Shown here: positions 3,268 through 45,495 of the stretch, in pieces
How the letters are laid out: every line of letters begins with the position of its first letter
Position numbering within the stretch: the first letter of the stretch is position 1
NCBI GenBank assembly: GCA_016795485.1
Contig: JAEUHM010000030.1
Location: 60,369 to 124,368 of the forward strand
DNA length: 64,000 bases
DNA from: Verrucomicrobiaceae bacterium
GTDB taxonomy: Bacteria > Verrucomicrobiota > Verrucomicrobiia > Verrucomicrobiales > Verrucomicrobiaceae
Direction: 5' to 3'
The notes under the pieces: model-generated
Database searches by the model: none
Told to the model about the DNA's origin: nothing
What the model saw: the letters and a program-made list of their open reading frames with translations, nothing else
Position numbers and translations under genes: made by a program

Positions 3268-3322
3268 GCAGAGGCAACGCTAGGAGGTGGAGCGCATAGC
3301 GACATTCCACCGCTCCGGGAGG

Positions 3323-3774
3323 CACGCTAAGCTAAGGGAGCGCGGGCACTCCTGCCCGCATGCCGGAGCGGTGAATGTGAGAAGGTCTATAGGCTCTCTG
3401 ACCGGCCTGTGCGCGTGTGTTAAGGCCCGGGGACGTGGGGCGGTCTGTTTGCTTGCAGGTTGGACGAGTCACTCACTCCGGCGGGCGGACAAGAGTGTCC
3501 GCGCTCCTGTTTCCGCCGCTCCGGGGAGCCGGAGGCTGGTGGAAGAGTTGCGGAGGAAGGTGGGGGCACGCTAAGCTAAGGGAGCGCGGGCACTCCTGCC
3601 CGCAAGTCGGAGCGGTGAATGTGAGAAGGTCTATAGGCTCTCTGACCGACCTGTGCGCGTGCGTTAAGGCCCGGCAACGTGGGGCGGTCTGTTTGCTTGC
3701 AGGTTGGACGAGTCACTCACTCCGGCGGGCGGACAAGAGTGTCCGCGCTCCTGTTTCCGCCGCTCCGGGGAGCC
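3323..3774. repeat. Two near-identical 208-bp direct repeats (3323-3530 and 3567-3774) separated by 36 bp. Each contains hairpin-forming palindromes (gcgggcactcctgcccgc; gcggacaagagtgtccgc).
   Basis: Direct comparison of the two copies shows a 244-bp period and about 97% identity. Confidence 0.85.
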
Positions 3775-4012
3775 GTGCCACCGCTCCGGTGAGCCGTGCC
3801 ACCGCTCCGGTGAGCCGTGCCACCAGCCACGGGGTCCACGCCACCAGCCACGGGGTCCACGCCACCAGCCACGGGGTCCAAGCCGCCAGCCACGGGGTCC
3901 AAGCCGCCAGCCACGGGGTCCGTGCCGCCAGCCCCGTGGTCCACGCCGCCAGCCCCGTGGTCCACGCCGCCAGCCACCGGGTCCGTGCCGCCAGCCCCGT
4001 GGTCCGGGCCAC
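3771..4012. repeat. 21-bp tandem minisatellite, about 11 units (agccgtgccaccgctccggtg drifting to ccaccagccacggggtccacg variants).
   Basis: Contiguous 21-bp units are visible in the sequence. They produce the spurious repetitive ORFs on both strands at 3417-4122. Confidence 0.85.
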
Positions 4013-4048
4013 CGCTGGTAGGGCGTCTTGGTCCTCCAAGCGCCGTCA
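4013..4048. repeat. Isolated REP-like palindrome (ggtagggcgtcttggtcctccaagcgcc). It is the same core as the REP units flanking the RAYT gene at 42.2-43.8 kb.
   Basis: Near-identical to ggtagggcgcttggtcccccaagcgcc at 42202, 42361, 42519, 43272 and 43431. Confidence 0.55.
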
Positions 4049-4388
4049 TCGCAGGCCGAGCGGCTTCGTTCATCCGGCGGGTTCATCATAGTCCACTGGC
4101 CTAACGCGACTCTGTGAGACACAGCGCCCTACCGCCCACGCGCCAATCCAAAATCCAAAATCCAAAAATAGTTCTTGTTCTTTGTCGTTCGGATTTGGTA
4201 AAACCGTCGGCGTATCGGTTTAAGCGACTTATGAAAGGTGTTTTCCGCGCAGTGTTATGGCAAACGGTATCATCAGACTTGATGAAGGCTGGAGGCTCGA
4301 TGAGGGCCACCATTTTGACCAGCCTCCCTTTGTGCCGTCTCCGTTGCCTGTGCTGACACCTCCACCAACCACAAAGAAAGGCAAAACC

Positions 4389-40757: not shown

Positions 40758-41768
40758 CTAACACTTGACCACAATCTTTCCGACGTGCTGACCTGACTCG
40801 ATCCTTTTGAAGGCGTCTACGGCCTCTGAGAGGGTAAACGTTGAGTCAATCACTGGGCGCATCTCGTGCGCCGACATGCACTTCAGGAGATCCATAAACA
40901 TCGCCCTGGAGCCTACATAGACCCCATCTAGCCGGATGTTCTTCCGCAAGATCTGCACGGTCTGAATCTCGCCAGACGTACCGGTAAGCACACCGATCAG
41001 CGCTACATGACCGCCAAAGCGGACAGAGCGCAAAGACTTGTTAAGCGTGTCAGGCCCGCCCACTTCGACGACTTTATCCACTCCGACGCCATCCGTTTGG
41101 CTCAGGACCCAATCATCCCAGGCTGGATCTTGGCGATAGTTGTGAACCTGCTCCGCGCCAAGAGCTTTCAATTGAGCCGCCTTCTCCTCACTACTGGTAA
41201 TGGCGAGCACACGCGCACCCGCGATCTTGGCCAACTGAAGCGCGAATACTGAAACGCCACCTGTTCCAAGAAGCAGCAACGTCTCACCGGCCTTGAGTTG
41301 ACCACGCACCATCAGCGCATGCCAAGCGGTGACCGCCGCACAGGGAAGCGTAGAGGCTTCTTCCAGCGTCAGGTAGTCAGGCACATGGACCAAACACGAA
41401 GCTGGCACCACAGCATACTCCCGCATCATGCCATCCACATGCGCGCCCAGTGCCGCTCCTTGGTGAGATGGCAGCATCTCCCCATCTAGCCATTGCGGCA
41501 TGAACGGAACGACGACTCGCTCGCCGATTCGCCAGTTTGCAACACCTTCACCGAGGGCAGCAATCTCGCCCGCACCGTCTGAGCATGGAACACGCGGGAT
41601 CGGCCCCGTGATGCCGCGGATGCCCACCACATTCATGTAGTCGCGAAAGTTCAGACACGTTGCCCTGACGCGAATCAACACCTCGCCATGCCCAGGCTCC
41701 GGCGTGGGAATGTCGTTGAGCTTCAGTGAATCAAAACCGTCTGTCCCGGTGATCTGGATGGCCTTCAT
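40758..41768 (-). CDS. Zinc-type alcohol dehydrogenase / quinone oxidoreductase (MDR superfamily).
   Basis: GxGxxG Rossmann motif (LLLGTGGVSVFALQLAKIAGARV) and an MDR fold pattern. Confidence 0.8.
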   Translation of the reverse strand: MKAIQITGTDGFDSLKLNDIPTPEPGHGEVLIRVRATCLNFRDYMNVVGIRGITGPIPRVPCSDGAGEIAALGEGVANWRIGERVVVPFMPQWLDGEMLPSHQGAALGAHVDGMMREYAVVPASCLVHVPDYLTLEEASTLPCAAVTAWHALMVRGQLKAGETLLLLGTGGVSVFALQLAKIAGARVLAITSSEEKAAQLKALGAEQVHNYRQDPAWDDWVLSQTDGVGVDKVVEVGGPDTLNKSLRSVRFGGHVALIGVLTGTSGEIQTVQILRKNIRLDGVYVGSRAMFMDLLKCMSAHEMRPVIDSTFTLSEAVDAFKRIESGQHVGKIVVKC

Positions 41769-41919
41769 GAGTCAGCCAGTGTGCGAGCATCTCCACTCCT
41801 GTGCAAGGGAGAGCCTTGGGACGCGCGCAGTTCTTGGTTGAACTGCATCCGCTTTCGTCCCGCTGCCCACTTTTGCTCAATCAAACTCAGAGTGCAGGCA
41901 AGGACTGGCACCCTCCCTA

Positions 41920-42096
41920 CTTTGAGTCGGAGTAGCGCTACTCTGAGCTGGAGTAGCGCTACTTTGAGCCGGAGTAGCGCTACTTTGAGCTGGAGTAGCG
42001 CTACTTTGAGCTGGAGTAGCGCTACTTTGAGTTGGAGTAGCGCTACTTTGGGTTGGAGTAGCGCTACTTTGGGTTGGAGGAGTGCTACTTTGAGTC
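41920..42096. repeat. About eight tandem 21-bp units (gagtagcgctactttgagcyg), each containing the palindrome agtagcgctact.
   Basis: Contiguous repeats visible in the sequence. They translate as SSATLSW repeats in spurious ORFs. Confidence 0.85.
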
Positions 42097-42201
42097 AAAG
42101 GAGGCCCGCATTGAGCCAAAGGAGGAGCCCGCCGCTGAGAATCTGGCTTGGACTCAACCAAGTCTACGTCACTGCCGAATCCTTGAAGCCTGCCAAAGAC
42201 T

Positions 42202-43785
42202 GGTAGGGCGCTTGGTCCCCCAAGCGCCGCGCGAGAGGAACGCGAAAGTCCAGCCAATGACCCGTGCATTGCACCTCCCATTGGCTATCCCCGCCCCACG
42301 CCTTCACCGGCTCACTGAGGACAGTTCGCCCTACCTCCGCCCAGGAAGAGCCGCACGCCGGTAGGGCGCTTGGTCCCCCAAGCGCCGCGCGAGAGGAACG
42401 CGAAAGCCCAGCCAATGACCCGCGCATTGCACGTCCCATTGGCTATCCCCGCCCCACGCCATCACCGGCTCACTGAGGACAGTTCGCCCTACCCTCCGCC
42501 CAGGAAGAGCCGCACGCTGGTAGGGCGCTTGGTCCCCCAAGCGCCGCGCGAGAGGAACGCGAAAGCCCAGCCAATGAACCGCGCATTGCACCATCCATTG
42601 GCTATCCCCGCCCCACGCCATCACCGGCTCACTGAGGACAGTTCATCCTACCTCCGCCCATGCAATGCCACCGACTGGCCTCTTCATCTCACCCGCAACC
42701 CATCTTCCACCCATCCACGGTCGCTTGAAGCTTGAATGGCCACTCTTCGGCGGTCTGGCAAAGGCCCTTTACCACTGGATTGTTCACCACGTATCTCAAC
42801 TTTGCCGTGACTTCGTCATCAGACCTTAGGCGATGATCAAAGAAGCCCTCCTGCCATTGGATGCCCAGAAAGCGGGCGGTGTACCTCTTCCAATCACGGA
42901 CCACCGCTGGCATTGGCGAGCTAGTCCGAGGAAAAGCGAACACCCCATGCAAGTGATCTGGCATTAACAGGGCAAGAAGCACGTGCCACTTGCCCTGCTC
43001 CGAATACTTTCGCAAAGAACCTAACAGGCCATCGGCAACGGCTGGACTGGTGAGTTGATCCACCCCACGGTGAGCACAATTGATCGTGACAAAGAACCAC
43101 GCCCCATCATCTACCCAATGGGGCGTATCGTGTCTGAGACGAGTTCGTTGAGGAAGTGCATCCGATGATTCATTCATCGCAGATTAGGTCACCGCATCGT
43201 GATCAAAAAGTGAAGAACGAATGATGAAGTGTGTGAAGAAATTTCCTTTCGCCCAGGAAGAGCCGTACGCTGGTAGGGCGCTTGGTCCCCCAAGCGCCGC
43301 GCGAGAGGAACGCGAATGCCCGGCCAATGACCCGCGCATTGCACCTCCCATTGGCTATCCCCGCCCCACGCCATCACCGGCTCACTGAGGACAGTTCACC
43401 CTACCTCCGCCCAGGAAGAGCCGCACGCTGGTAGGGCGCTTGGTCCCCCAAGCGCCGCGCGAGAGGAACGCGAATGCCCAGCCAATGACCCGTGCATTGC
43501 ACCACCCATTGGCCATCCCCGCCCCACGCCTTCACCGGCTCACTGAGGACAGTTCACCCTACCTCCGCCCATGCAAAGTCGCGTGAGAGGAACGCGAAAG
43601 CCCAGCCAATGACCCGTGCATTGCACCATCCATTGGCTATTCCCGCCCCACGCCTTCACCGGCTCACTGAGGACAGTTCGCCCTACCTCCGCCCATGCAA
43701 AGCCGCGCGAGAGGAACGCGAATGCCTGGCCAATGAACCACGCCATCACCGGCTCACTGGGGACAGTTCGCCTTACCTTCCGCCT
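42202..43785. mobile_element. REPtron-like locus: a RAYT (IS200-like Y1 transposase) gene flanked by arrays of a ~158-bp REP unit with two internal hairpins.
   Basis: Three REP copies upstream (42202-42670) and about four downstream (43251-43785) of the RAYT CDS. The units carry stems gggcgcttgg/ccaagcgccc and agccaatg/cattggct. Confidence 0.8.
42689..43177 (-). CDS. REP-associated tyrosine transposase (RAYT; IS200/IS605-like Y1 transposase).
   Basis: HxH motif (DHLHGVF) and a C-terminal catalytic-Tyr region (RYVVNNPV) in a ~160-aa protein flanked by REP arrays. Confidence 0.8.
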   Translation of the reverse strand: MNESSDALPQRTRLRHDTPHWVDDGAWFFVTINCAHRGVDQLTSPAVADGLLGSLRKYSEQGKWHVLLALLMPDHLHGVFAFPRTSSPMPAVVRDWKRYTARFLGIQWQEGFFDHRLRSDDEVTAKLRYVVNNPVVKGLCQTAEEWPFKLQATVDGWKMGCG

Positions 43786-43818
43786 GAGCAGCGCGGTGGG
43801 GGGAACGACCCGACGGTG

Positions 43819-45495
43819 CTAACCTACTCCAATGATGGTCCCGTCCTCGCTGACGTCCACGCGTTCGGCTGCTGGAACGCGGGGAAGGGCGGGCATTCTC
43901 ATCATTTGGCCGGTGAGGGCGACGAGGAAGCCTGCACCAGCTGCAATCTCGAAGTCGCGGACGGTGATGCGGAATCCACTTGGGCGTCCTTGCAAATCTG
44001 AGTTGTCGGACAGTGAGTTCTGCGTTTTTGCCATGCAGAGTGGCAGGTGTGAGTAGCCTGCGGCTGTTAGGGCAGCGAGTTTCTCCACGGCTGCTTCTGT
44101 GAGGTCCACGCCATCAGCCCCGTAGATGCTGGTGGCGACTGCGTTGAGCTTTTCGGGCACTGACTGATCGACTTCGTAAAGCATGGGGAGGCTTGGAGCG
44201 GTGGCGGATGCGTTTTTGACAACCTTCTCGGCGAGTTCGACCGCGCCCGGACCTCCTTGGCCAAACACATCGGCTGTAGCGCTGTCCACACTGCGTTTTT
44301 GGCAGAAGCCGTGCACGGTTGCGATCTCCTCGTCTGTGTCTTGCGTGAACTTGTTAATCGCGACAACGATGGGACGCTTGAAATGAGCCGCAGCATCCAA
44401 GTGCGCTGCAAGGTTCTGCAAACCGCGCTCCACCGCTGCGACATCGGGCTTGGTGAGGTCGTCTAGTGCTACTCCGCCGTGCATTTTTAGCGCGCGGATG
44501 GTGGCTACGATCACAATTGCCGCCGGTGCTAGTCCTGACTGGCGGCACTTGATGTGCATGAACTTCTCCCCACCGAGATCAAAGGCAAAGCCGGCTTCAG
44601 TGACGGCATAGTCCGCGTGAGAAAGGGCCATGCGAGTAGCGAGCACGCTGTTGCAGCCGTGCGCGATGTTTGCAAACGGTCCACCATGAACAAAAGCAGG
44701 CACGCCTTCGAGTGACTGCACCAAGTTGGGGTGCAGCGCATCACGAAGGAGCGCCACCATCGCTCCAATGCAGCGAAACTCCTCTGCCTTGACCGCACTT
44801 CCCTCGCTGTCGAAACCAACAACGATGCGCTTGAGCCGCGCACGCAAGTCAGCGGCTGATTCGGCAAGGCAGAGCGCTGCCATCACTTCAGAAGCGGCGG
44901 TGATATCGAATCCTGTAATCCGCTCGACACCATTCTTTCCTGAGGTGATCTTGATCACACGAAGCGCACGATCATTGCAATCGAGCACCCGTTTCCAGAG
45001 AACGCGGGAAGGATCGAGCCGAGTGGTTTTGTAAAAGAGTGCGTTGTCGACGACACTGGCGAGCAAGTTGTGCGCGCTGGTGATGGCGTGGAAGTCGCCG
45101 TTGAAATGGAGGTTGATGGATTCACCCGGAACGATGCGGCTGAGGCCGCCGCCCGTGGCTCCTCCTTTGCGCCCGAACACTGGGCCCATGGATGGCTGCC
45201 TGAGTGCGAGGGCCACACTTTGCCCGATCTTTTTGAGCCCTTGAGCGAGTCCAATCGAAACCGTGGTTTTGCCCTCACCAGCTGGAGTAGGCGTGATGGC
45301 AGAGACAAGAATCAAGCGGCCCTTCTTGGGGCCAGAATCGATAGCATCGATGCTGACCTTGGCTTTGTCATGGCCGAAGGGCATGAGATGGCTGGAGGAG
45401 ATGCCAAGAGAGTTGGCTACTTCTGCAATGGGTGCCAGGGAAGACATGGTCACGAGCATTGCGAGGACGGCGATAGACGCTAGCGTAATGTACAT
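43819..45495 (-). CDS. fhs: Formate--tetrahydrofolate ligase.
   Basis: Hallmark TPTPAGEGKTT P-loop and length of about 558 aa. Confidence 0.9.
   Translation of the reverse strand: MYITLASIAVLAMLVTMSSLAPIAEVANSLGISSSHLMPFGHDKAKVSIDAIDSGPKKGRLILVSAITPTPAGEGKTTVSIGLAQGLKKIGQSVALALRQPSMGPVFGRKGGATGGGLSRIVPGESINLHFNGDFHAITSAHNLLASVVDNALFYKTTRLDPSRVLWKRVLDCNDRALRVIKITSGKNGVERITGFDITAASEVMAALCLAESAADLRARLKRIVVGFDSEGSAVKAEEFRCIGAMVALLRDALHPNLVQSLEGVPAFVHGGPFANIAHGCNSVLATRMALSHADYAVTEAGFAFDLGGEKFMHIKCRQSGLAPAAIVIVATIRALKMHGGVALDDLTKPDVAAVERGLQNLAAHLDAAAHFKRPIVVAINKFTQDTDEEIATVHGFCQKRSVDSATADVFGQGGPGAVELAEKVVKNASATAPSLPMLYEVDQSVPEKLNAVATSIYGADGVDLTEAAVEKLAALTAAGYSHLPLCMAKTQNSLSDNSDLQGRPSGFRITVRDFEIAAGAGFLVALTGQMMRMPALPRVPAAERVDVSEDGTIIGVG

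Follow-up and report, generated by a model that had tools for sequence, protein, structure and literature searches.

The 64-kb window analysed here (64,000 nucleotides of contig JAEUHM010000030.1, positions 60,369 to 124,368, from the Verrucomicrobiaceae assembly GCA_016795485.1; G+C content 55.7%) contains a locus that is very probably a REPtron, in which a single gene for a REP-associated tyrosine transposase (RAYT) lies within tandem arrays of its cognate repetitive extragenic palindromic (REP) sequence, organized like bacterial interspersed mosaic elements (BIMEs). The protein has the family membership, motifs, and fold of a RAYT. The repeats have the anatomy of GTAG hairpins, occur outside the locus and across the bacterial family, and vary in their stems by compensatory changes, and the arrangement of a RAYT gene inside REP arrays recurs in related genomes. 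Copy number and activity aside, all the defining features of a REPtron with BIME-like arrays that could be tested were found. The open reading frame (ORF) of the RAYT sits between two tandem arrays:

42689-43177, minus strand, RAYT/TnpA_REP gene, 162 aa (ORF listing)
42200-42660, plus strand, left array, beyond the RAYT stop codon (downstream; Tandem Repeats Finder, repeat families D1/D3/D4, unit alignment A1)
43248-43786, plus strand, right array, before the RAYT start codon (upstream; Tandem Repeats Finder, alignment A1, coordinates)

The protein is a RAYT/TnpA_REP rather than a TnpA of the IS200/IS605 family. It passed the curated equivalog model NCBIfam NF047646 REP_Tyr_transpos (89.3 bits, cut-off 80) and failed the IS200 equivalog model NF033573 (13.4 bits, cut-off 55), and its match to Pfam Y1_Tnp was weak and sub-threshold (17.5 vs 23). 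A phmmer search gave E. coli TnpA_REP (4ER8, E=1.2e-9) as the best sequence match in PDB, with PDHLHGVF aligned to PEHMHCIW and RYVVNNPV to DYIYINPV. The active site of the E. coli enzyme is formed by H59-M60-H61, Y115 on helix alpha-D, and N119 (PMC3479197). The HuH motif H75-L76-H77 of the window protein aligns with H59-M60-H61, and its Y129 and N133 are the counterparts of Y115 and N119, so that both the HuH motif and the catalytic tyrosine, which had been anticipated from the sequence, are present. H75, H77, Y129, N133, and P134 do not vary among 35 homologues (42-58% identity). An AlphaFold model from the alignment of these 35 homologues reached a pLDDT of 91.3; its top Foldseek match was 4er8_A (E=8.7e-10, TM 0.69), and the ISDra2/IS608 TnpAs followed with a TM of about 0.5. 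An identical protein (P0001) is titled 'MAG: transposase [Verrucomicrobiaceae bacterium]' in NCBI (MAG, metagenome-assembled genome), which confirms that the DNA is verrucomicrobial. Many homologues in JGI and NCBI already carry the name 'REP element-mobilizing transposase RayT' or 'REP-associated tyrosine transposase [Prosthecobacter sp.]'. RAYT genes are typically present in a single copy per genome and inherited vertically; no second RAYT copy was found within the 64-kb window.

The REP that accompanies the gene, here called REP-A, is 27 nt long (GGTAGGGCGCTTGG-TCCC-CCAAGCGCC), within the 20-40 nt typical of GTAG-class palindromes, and carries GTAG at the 5' foot of its hairpin: G-GTAG is followed by a perfect 9-bp stem (GGCGCTTGG/CCAAGCGCC) with the loop TCCC. 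The 27-mer core GGTAGGGCGCTTGGTCCCCCAAGCGCC occurs in five exact copies, all on the plus strand, whereas none were expected from 100 shuffles; the core and the 162-aa ORF had been recorded by an earlier sequence-only reading of this DNA, and both were confirmed. A second REP, here called REP-B', lies inverted in the 3' part of the repeat unit in seven copies (plus strand, GGCTCACTGAGGACAGTTCGCCCTACC; minus strand, GGTAGGGCGAACTGTCCTCAGTGAGCC) and is decayed. The elements of the arrays are as follows:

42202-42228, plus strand, REP-A copy 1
42360-42386, plus strand, REP-A copy 2
42519-42545, plus strand, REP-A copy 3
43272-43298, plus strand, REP-A copy 4, the REP closest to the RAYT start
43430-43456, plus strand, REP-A copy 5
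42309-42335, minus strand, inverted REP-B' copy 1 (regex coordinates; 7 of 9 stem pairs, loop TCCT)
42626-42652, minus strand, inverted REP-B' copy 3, the REP closest to the RAYT stop
42467-42493, 43379-43405, 43537-43563, 43661-43687, and 43751-43777, minus strand, further copies of inverted REP-B'
42253-42285, plus strand, hairpin of the spacer (GCCAATG..CATTGGC, loop of 19 nt), present once in each unit, with further copies at 42411, 42570, 43323, 43481, and 43605

Folded as single-stranded DNA, REP-A (copy at 42355-42392) forms a stable hairpin (-13.4 kcal/mol, z = -2.56), while that of REP-B', which has two central stem mismatches, is weak (-5.4 kcal/mol, z = -0.22). REP-B' is 24/27 identical to the intact REP GGTAGGGCGGACTGTCCTCAGTCCGCC of the related loci L001, L049, L073, and L093.

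The REP is not confined to the RAYT locus. A REP-A variant that differs by one inserted base and by one substitution in the loop (GGTAGGGCGtCTTGGTCCtCCAAGCGCC) was found on the plus strand at 4017-4044 by BLAST and regex; an ungapped search at up to 3 mismatches passes over it. The sequence-only reading had noted the same core 38 kb away at 4013-4048, and the recurrence was upheld while the position and the identity were corrected. The variant belongs to the only REP doublet in the window outside the RAYT locus:

4017-4134, plus strand, doublet resembling a REPIN (inverted REP doublet), with the GTAG ends outermost, consisting of the REP-A variant, a spacer of ~62 nt, and a decayed inverted REP

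The decayed inverted REP lies at about 4107-4134 with its GTAG on the minus strand. The whole of 4017-4134 aligns with doublets of about 120 nt in L035, L089, L054, L059, L016, and L073, and the alignment takes in part of the spacer (GTCATCGCAGGCCGA.GGC.TCGTTCA).

The pattern GGTAGGGCG[N]CTTGGNNNNCCAAGCGCC was searched in 185,579 species, each represented by one genome. With its loop bases allowed to vary, REP-A turned up in 90 stretches, which belong to 39 assemblies by count of accession prefixes, all of them MAGs. Their labels are Verrucomicrobia, Verrucomicrobiaceae, Prosthecobacter, or Brevifollis, apart from two labelled as Akkermansia muciniphila and one, JANOAS01, labelled just 'bacterium'. 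The two Akkermansia-labelled MAGs (L016, CAMAZK010000127.1; L039, CAMCXS010000001.1) are derived from lakes and carry a REP-A of the Prosthecobacter type; their species label is probably wrong. The 27-nt REP is essentially identical in the 39 species. Megablast of the window against the 90 loci gave no long matches, and the source genome is outside the 39 MAGs. The flanks of 104 REP-A instances showed that REP-A is regularly paired with a second REP in inverted orientation (...CGGCGGCTGGAGGACCAGCCGCCCTACC or ...GGCTGAGGACAGCCAGCCCTACC; on the other strand, GGTAGGGCGGCTGG-TCCT-CCAGCCGCC).

These flanks also bear on the repeat unit of the arrays, which the sequence-only reading had described as an unusually long, 158-bp REP unit with two hairpins. 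Tandem Repeats Finder reported a period of 159 at 42200-42660 (2.9 copies, 95% matches), of 158 at 43250-43571 (2.0 copies, 96% matches), and of 124 at 43454-43736 (2.3 copies, 92% matches). Seven units were aligned: three full units of 158/159 bp on the left, and two full and two truncated units on the right, of which R3 is without the REP-A hairpin (giving the 124-bp period) and R4 is without REP-A and has an internal deletion in addition. Each unit of the left array consists, in order, of REP-A, a spacer of ~80 nt that includes the stem AGCCAATG/CATTGGCT, inverted REP-B', and a 24-nt linker (TCCGCCCAGGAAGAGCCGCACGCT). Stems of 9 bp (the REP), 4 bp (CGCG), and 8 bp (AGCCAATG/CATTGGCT) are present in the unit, along with the weak inverted GTAG hairpin at the 3' end.

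Because the flanks of the 104 REP-A instances show an inverted partner REP, the 158-bp unit is better read as a BIME-like composite of REP-A, a private spacer, a decayed inverted REP-B', and a linker. When the whole 160-nt unit was compared with the 90 loci by BLAST, only positions 1-40 (REP-A) matched, together with positions 110-137 (the inverted REP) in three of them; since only the REP parts match, the composite is not a conserved element. The spacer was absent from the 90 loci by BLAST, and a search of metagenome contigs with GCCAATGAMCCGYGCATTGCAC gave one match, a chance one inside an unrelated coding sequence. The impression of an unusually long REP is therefore a framing artefact: the 158-bp sequence is indeed a repeat unit, whereas the REP proper measures 27 nt and more than two stems are present. 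The second hairpin that matters biologically is not the AGCCAATG stem but the inverted GTAG element at the 3' end of the unit. Across the five full copies, variable columns numbered 0/27 in REP-A and 12/107 elsewhere in the unit, a difference that was not significant (Fisher p = 0.12). The dispersed entity is the 27-nt REP alone, and doublets of about 120 nt, as at 4017-4134, appear to be the dispersed unit in many related MAGs, whereas the 158-bp composite does not. The dissemination that had been suggested for the repeat is accordingly borne out for the REP as regards its occurrence outside the locus and in 39 species, and not for the composite; a high copy number throughout the genome may be expected.

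The association between the RAYT and the REP recurs in relatives. Tblastn against the 90 loci found RAYT homologues directly beside REP-A in L064 (57% identity), L016 (53%), and L006 (51%), and exact-protein look-up retrieved further homologues in L091, L092, L093, and L097. All seven of these genes are embedded in GGTAGGG hairpins in alternating orientation, and their gene neighbourhoods differ. The RAYT model, the motif alignment, the fold, the GTAG hairpins, and these seven relatives together bear out the proposal of the sequence-only reading that a Y1/HuH RAYT is flanked here by its cognate REPs.

The hairpin stems vary between species by paired (compensatory) changes while GGTAGGGCG and the TCCY loop remain constant. 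In addition to GGCGCTTGG/CCAAGCGCC, the stems observed include GGCGCTGTG/CACAGCGCC, GGCGGTTGG/CCAACCGCC, GGCGGGTTG/CAACCCGCC, GGCGGCTGG/CCAGCCGCC, and GGAGGGCTG/CAGCCCTCC, and a fixed geometry of GGTAG, 9 bp, and a 4-nt loop is common to 51 distinct hairpin variants. Among 130 distinct GGTAGGG 27-mers, from which the search seeds had been left out and which were not selected for pairing, 44 formed at least 8 of the 9 pairs, compared to 6.0 in an arm-shuffle control that deals the 3' arms among the sequences.

The position of the gene relative to the nearest REPs is also shared. The REP-B' at 42626-42652 and the REP-A at 43272 bracket the gene tail-to-tail (CCTACC - RAYT - GGTAGG). Read on the coding strand, the order is inverted A-type REP, RAYT, and B-type REP in the window as well as in L006, L016, and L092, with the GTAG ends facing the gene in all four. 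The RAYT cassette of the window (42661-43247) is placed exactly in the linker between the inverted REP and the REP, with a linker 8-mer at each edge:

42653-42660, plus strand, linker 8-mer TCCGCCCA, left cassette edge
43248-43255, plus strand, linker 8-mer TTCGCCCA, right cassette edge, a repeat of the left-edge 8-mer

The repetition of the 8-mer at both cassette edges may be significant. The same 8-mer, T[CT]CGCCCA, which flanks the cassette on both sides at 42653-42660 and 43248-43255, is also present at 43564-43571 and 43688-43695. It has two continuations, either GGAAGAGCC... into REP-A or TGCAA[AT]G[CT]C, and the latter leads into the RAYT 3' flank or directly into the spacer with REP-A skipped.

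More distant, Opitutae-like RAYT homologues (49-51% identity) were found at L095 3001-3483 and L096 3001-3522. They are syntenic, with a Mur-ligase gene on one side, a MiaB-like radical-SAM gene on the other, and short intergenic spacers, and no obvious GGTAGG hairpins were found beside them; this RAYT looks like a domesticated, vertically inherited copy.

A mechanism may be proposed by analogy with E. coli TnpA_REP (PMC3333891, PMC3479197). The RAYT, by family a HuH/Y1 endonuclease-ligase of single-stranded DNA, would bind the REP hairpin extruded in such DNA, the element recognized being the 27-nt REP with its 5'-foot GTAG, 9-bp stem, and TCCY loop, and the GTAG would be read by the enzyme as a guide. 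Cleavage nearby would yield a 5'-phosphotyrosine through Y129, with the metal held by H75 and H77, and the RAYT would then rejoin the strands. In the arrays, CT, the dinucleotide at which the E. coli enzyme cleaves, stands immediately 5' of GGTAGG in 4/5 copies. Such activity over time may have spread REP doublets such as that at 4017-4134, and the RAYT, alone or with host recombination or replication, may have multiplied doublets in tandem beside its own gene. In the known BIME architecture, REPs of two types are arranged in tandem in alternating orientation; the tandem arrays of BIME-2 are well conserved within a locus, and models of their amplification based on TnpA_REP have been put forward (PMC3333891). 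REP dimers repeated tandemly with the DNA that flanks them have also been described (PMC3733652).

Several observations weigh against this interpretation as a REPtron. That the RAYT is active, that it binds, cleaves, and mobilises REPs, and how the arrays were amplified are all inferred from homology to E. coli TnpA_REP, whose metal ligand H123 is replaced by K137 in the window protein. REP-B' folds no differently from shuffled sequence and is recognized by homology only. Exact REP-A occurs at just 1-7 loci per related MAG, and the REP count for the source genome covers the 64-kb window only. Eight GGTAGG hairpins were found more than 1.5 kb from any seed in 397 kb of fetched 8-kb tiles, which corresponds to a density of about 20 per Mb, or on the order of 100 per genome, a rough figure that is based on 8 sites. 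The junction CCGCCCA|TGCAA[AT]G[CT]C recurs at 42660, 43571, and 43695, three independent-looking junctions with one breakpoint, and does not fall at a CT dinucleotide. Finally, the 158-bp composite shows no sign of dispersal, and its tandem amplification may therefore be due to ordinary unequal recombination or slippage, not to RAYT chemistry.

The last points lead to an alternative that we regard as possible, though rather doubtful, namely that the arrays were amplified by host slippage or unequal RecA recombination and that the RAYT recognizes, or once recognized, only the 27-nt REP. Since the recurrent breakpoint is not at CT, host recombination is a live alternative for the arrays and the truncated units. 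The composite and its spacer are confined to this locus, the units are 92-97% alike, and the truncated variants are typical of recombination between repeats. In addition, both REP sites of the window adjoin 21-bp tandem arrays of unrelated sequence, suggesting that tandem expansion is a general tendency of these intergenic regions. In contrast, the presence of all seven related RAYT genes in REP arrays, despite different spacers and neighbours, points to a process linked to the RAYT and the REP as a pair, and E. coli TnpA_REP recombines BIMEs in vitro (PMC3333891).

The different neighbourhoods of the related RAYTs and the exact fit of the cassette between the two copies of T[CT]CGCCCA also invite readings in which the gene itself moves. 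It is unlikely, in our judgement, that the RAYT gene is the cargo of a REP doublet and that, in Verrucomicrobiaceae, the entire REPtron still moves as a unit by the action of its own enzyme, through transposition or through capture and re-insertion. This idea arises because the cassette fits the linker of a tail-to-tail dimer and because the same order is found in three other species, whose RAYTs are about 51-53% identical and whose neighbourhoods differ. If it were true, the REPtron would stand between an IS200-like element and a RAYT that has become fully domesticated. We consider it very improbable that the gene and its flanking hairpins are a present or recent autonomous insertion sequence (IS) of the IS200/IS605 type that moves as a unit. 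The same fit, the same diversity of neighbourhoods, and the weak Pfam Y1_Tnp match would agree with it; the RAYT model was passed, however, and the IS200 equivalog model failed, there is no TnpB gene (the neighbours encode a formate-tetrahydrofolate ligase and a zinc-binding dehydrogenase), the gene is present once in 64 kb, REPs are dispersed without it, and the distant homologues in L095 and L096 are syntenic between genomes, as in vertical inheritance.

It is also quite unlikely that the host maintains the repeats chiefly for a function at the RNA or DNA level, for example as hairpins that stabilise mRNA or terminate transcription or as binding sites for proteins, with the transposase incidental. 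Such roles of REPs are known in E. coli (PMC3733652). With all three genes on the minus strand, read-through from the ligase gene would carry transcription across the arrays, and the near identity of the 27-nt REP in 39 species suggests strong constraint. The constraint is equally explained by recognition by the RAYT, however; no Rfam family matched at gathering score, and no intrinsic-terminator-like site was found in the arrays. A host function of this kind would be compatible with the REPtron reading.

Read as a REPtron, the locus resembles that of E. coli K-12 (tnpA_REP/yafM with BIMEs; PMC3333891, PMC3479197, 4ER8) in its single HuH/Y1 gene of ~160 aa and in REPs that are imperfect palindromes with GTAG at their 5' foot. 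In both, REPs of two types alternate in orientation with linkers between them, and the tandem copies are well conserved within a locus. E. coli TnpA_REP is the best match in both sequence and fold, yet the identity is ~22% over the structural alignment. The REP stem of the window is a perfect, G+C-rich 9-bp helix with a 4-nt loop, whereas that of E. coli is longer and has conserved mismatches. The unit of the window, with its decayed partner REP, is much longer (158 bp) than that of E. coli, because of the private spacer of ~80 nt. The REPIN-RAYT system of Pseudomonas fluorescens SBW25 and its relatives (PMC3116915, PMC5581495) is similar in its dispersed inverted REP doublets (4017-4134 and the ~120-nt doublets here), in the flanking of the RAYT by doublets, and in a REP type that is lineage-wide; the difference lies in the RAYT neighbourhoods, which vary between the Verrucomicrobiaceae species examined. 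With the IS200/IS605 family (IS608, ISDra2), the locus has in common the HuH/Y1 fold, the predicted single-strand chemistry, and hairpins in sub-terminal position that have a guide tetranucleotide on their 5' side. Unlike that family, it has no TnpB gene and did not reach the IS200 equivalog cut-off, its hairpins are dispersed independently of the gene, and the gene appears to be single-copy in the window.

The sequence-only reading had also held that REP/RAYT systems are poorly described in Verrucomicrobia. This view needs correcting, as GTAG REPs of the PVC superphylum, and REPtrons in Opitutus terrae, were reported in 2013, with Opitutus terrae described as 'highly enriched' and intragenic insertions included (Di Nocera et al. 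2013, PMC3733652), and homologues of the protein are already named RayT. The repeats of Opitutus terrae come from the same phylum and have GTAG-tagged stems of 6-9 bp; they form head-to-head, tail-to-tail, and head-to-tail dimers, clusters in which dimers and the DNA beside them recur in tandem, and intragenic in-frame insertions. The window represents another order and family (Verrucomicrobiaceae, Prosthecobacter-Brevifollis group), and the REPs are likened by description. An intragenic REP of the Opitutus terrae type was noticed at L010 3718-5784, where a 688-aa Ser/Thr protein kinase ORF runs in frame through a REP-A/inverted REP-B doublet (~4100-4240); the insertion (...GRALGPPSAVPAEQRRLEDKPPYQ...) sits just ahead of the LYFVMEFIDG strand.

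The REP/RAYT system is thus well described in E. coli and Pseudomonas and already reported in Verrucomicrobia, and the locus, with its domesticated type of single-strand DNA transposase gene, is an ordinary example of it. Modestly new are the REP sequence itself, which 39 species of one family share in near-identical form, the private spacer whose length accounts for the 158-bp local unit, and the fact that the RAYT is consistently found within a tail-to-tail A/B dimer. The results extend the REP/BIME-RAYT system to the Prosthecobacter/Brevifollis group of Verrucomicrobiaceae and do not define a new kind of system. They make available a defined REP (GGTAGGGCG-N5-TCCY-N5'-CGCC) with a predicted cognate enzyme, and one 27-nt REP common to 39 species for studies of REPIN-RAYT persistence. 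In the annotation of these genomes, intergenic tandem arrays and in-frame protein insertions of the 'GRALGPPSA' type become recognisable as REPs, and in the assembly of MAGs, REPs located in arrays can break contigs.

The genes next to the RAYT ORF lie on the same strand, in the order formate-tetrahydrofolate ligase, RAYT, and zinc-binding dehydrogenase:

43819-45495, minus strand, formate-tetrahydrofolate ligase gene, RAYT neighbour
40758-41768, minus strand, zinc-binding dehydrogenase gene, RAYT neighbour

A sigma-70 promoter scan found no promoter-like site. An intrinsic terminator scan found none in the arrays; its one terminator-like hairpin lies in the RAYT ORF and is no more than chance would give. 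A CRISPR-like reading of the arrays was rejected on the absence of unique spacers, and a coding reading was also rejected; the ORFs concerned start within repeat units and overlap each other on both strands.

The left REP array is preceded, about 100 bp upstream at 41917-42095, by 8.5 tandem copies of a 21-bp unit (CTACTTTGAGTTGGAGTAGCG). The unit holds the palindrome GTAGCGCTAC, which places GTAG on both strands, and neighbouring units fold as a very stable hairpin (-14.6 kcal/mol, z = -6). This array had no match in any related locus. The sub-threshold Rfam matches to microRNA families located on it are artefacts of its self-complementarity. At the other REP site, 21-bp tandem arrays at 3757-4013 (CCGCTCCGGTGAGCCGTGCCA x3, then GCCGCCAGCCACGGGGTCCAC x9) abut the REP doublet at 4017, and the core of the GCCGCCAGCCACGGGGTCCAC array alternates between CCACGGGG and its reverse complement CCCCGTGG.

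The intergenic region of the 4017-4134 doublet also contains, at 3318-3775, 1.9 copies of a 244-bp unit at 97% identity. A piece of 24-34 nt of this unit, with the hairpin GCGGGCA-CTCC-TGCCCGC, recurs in L004, L054, L074, and L091, which suggests a second family of small palindromic repeats without GTAG. In addition, an element of ~235 bp resembling a miniature inverted-repeat transposable element was observed in many species, with several copies per genome (L009, L011, L019, L021, L023, L044, L047, L049, L056, L084, and other loci). It is bounded by the terminal inverted repeats TATAGCGGTTCGCAAAAC... and ...GTTTTGGAAAACGCTATA, and in its middle inverted REP-B' and REP-A form a tail-to-tail pair with a 29-nt palindromic linker in between; the sequence beyond its TATAGC ends is unrelated between copies. 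A third type of GTAG-tagged repeat, with a stem geometry unlike those of REP-A and REP-B, occurs in several variants (e.g. GGTAGGGAACCGCTGCGCCGGGTCCGT and GGTAGGGATGCGCTGTGCGCGTCCCTA) in L050, L011, and other loci.

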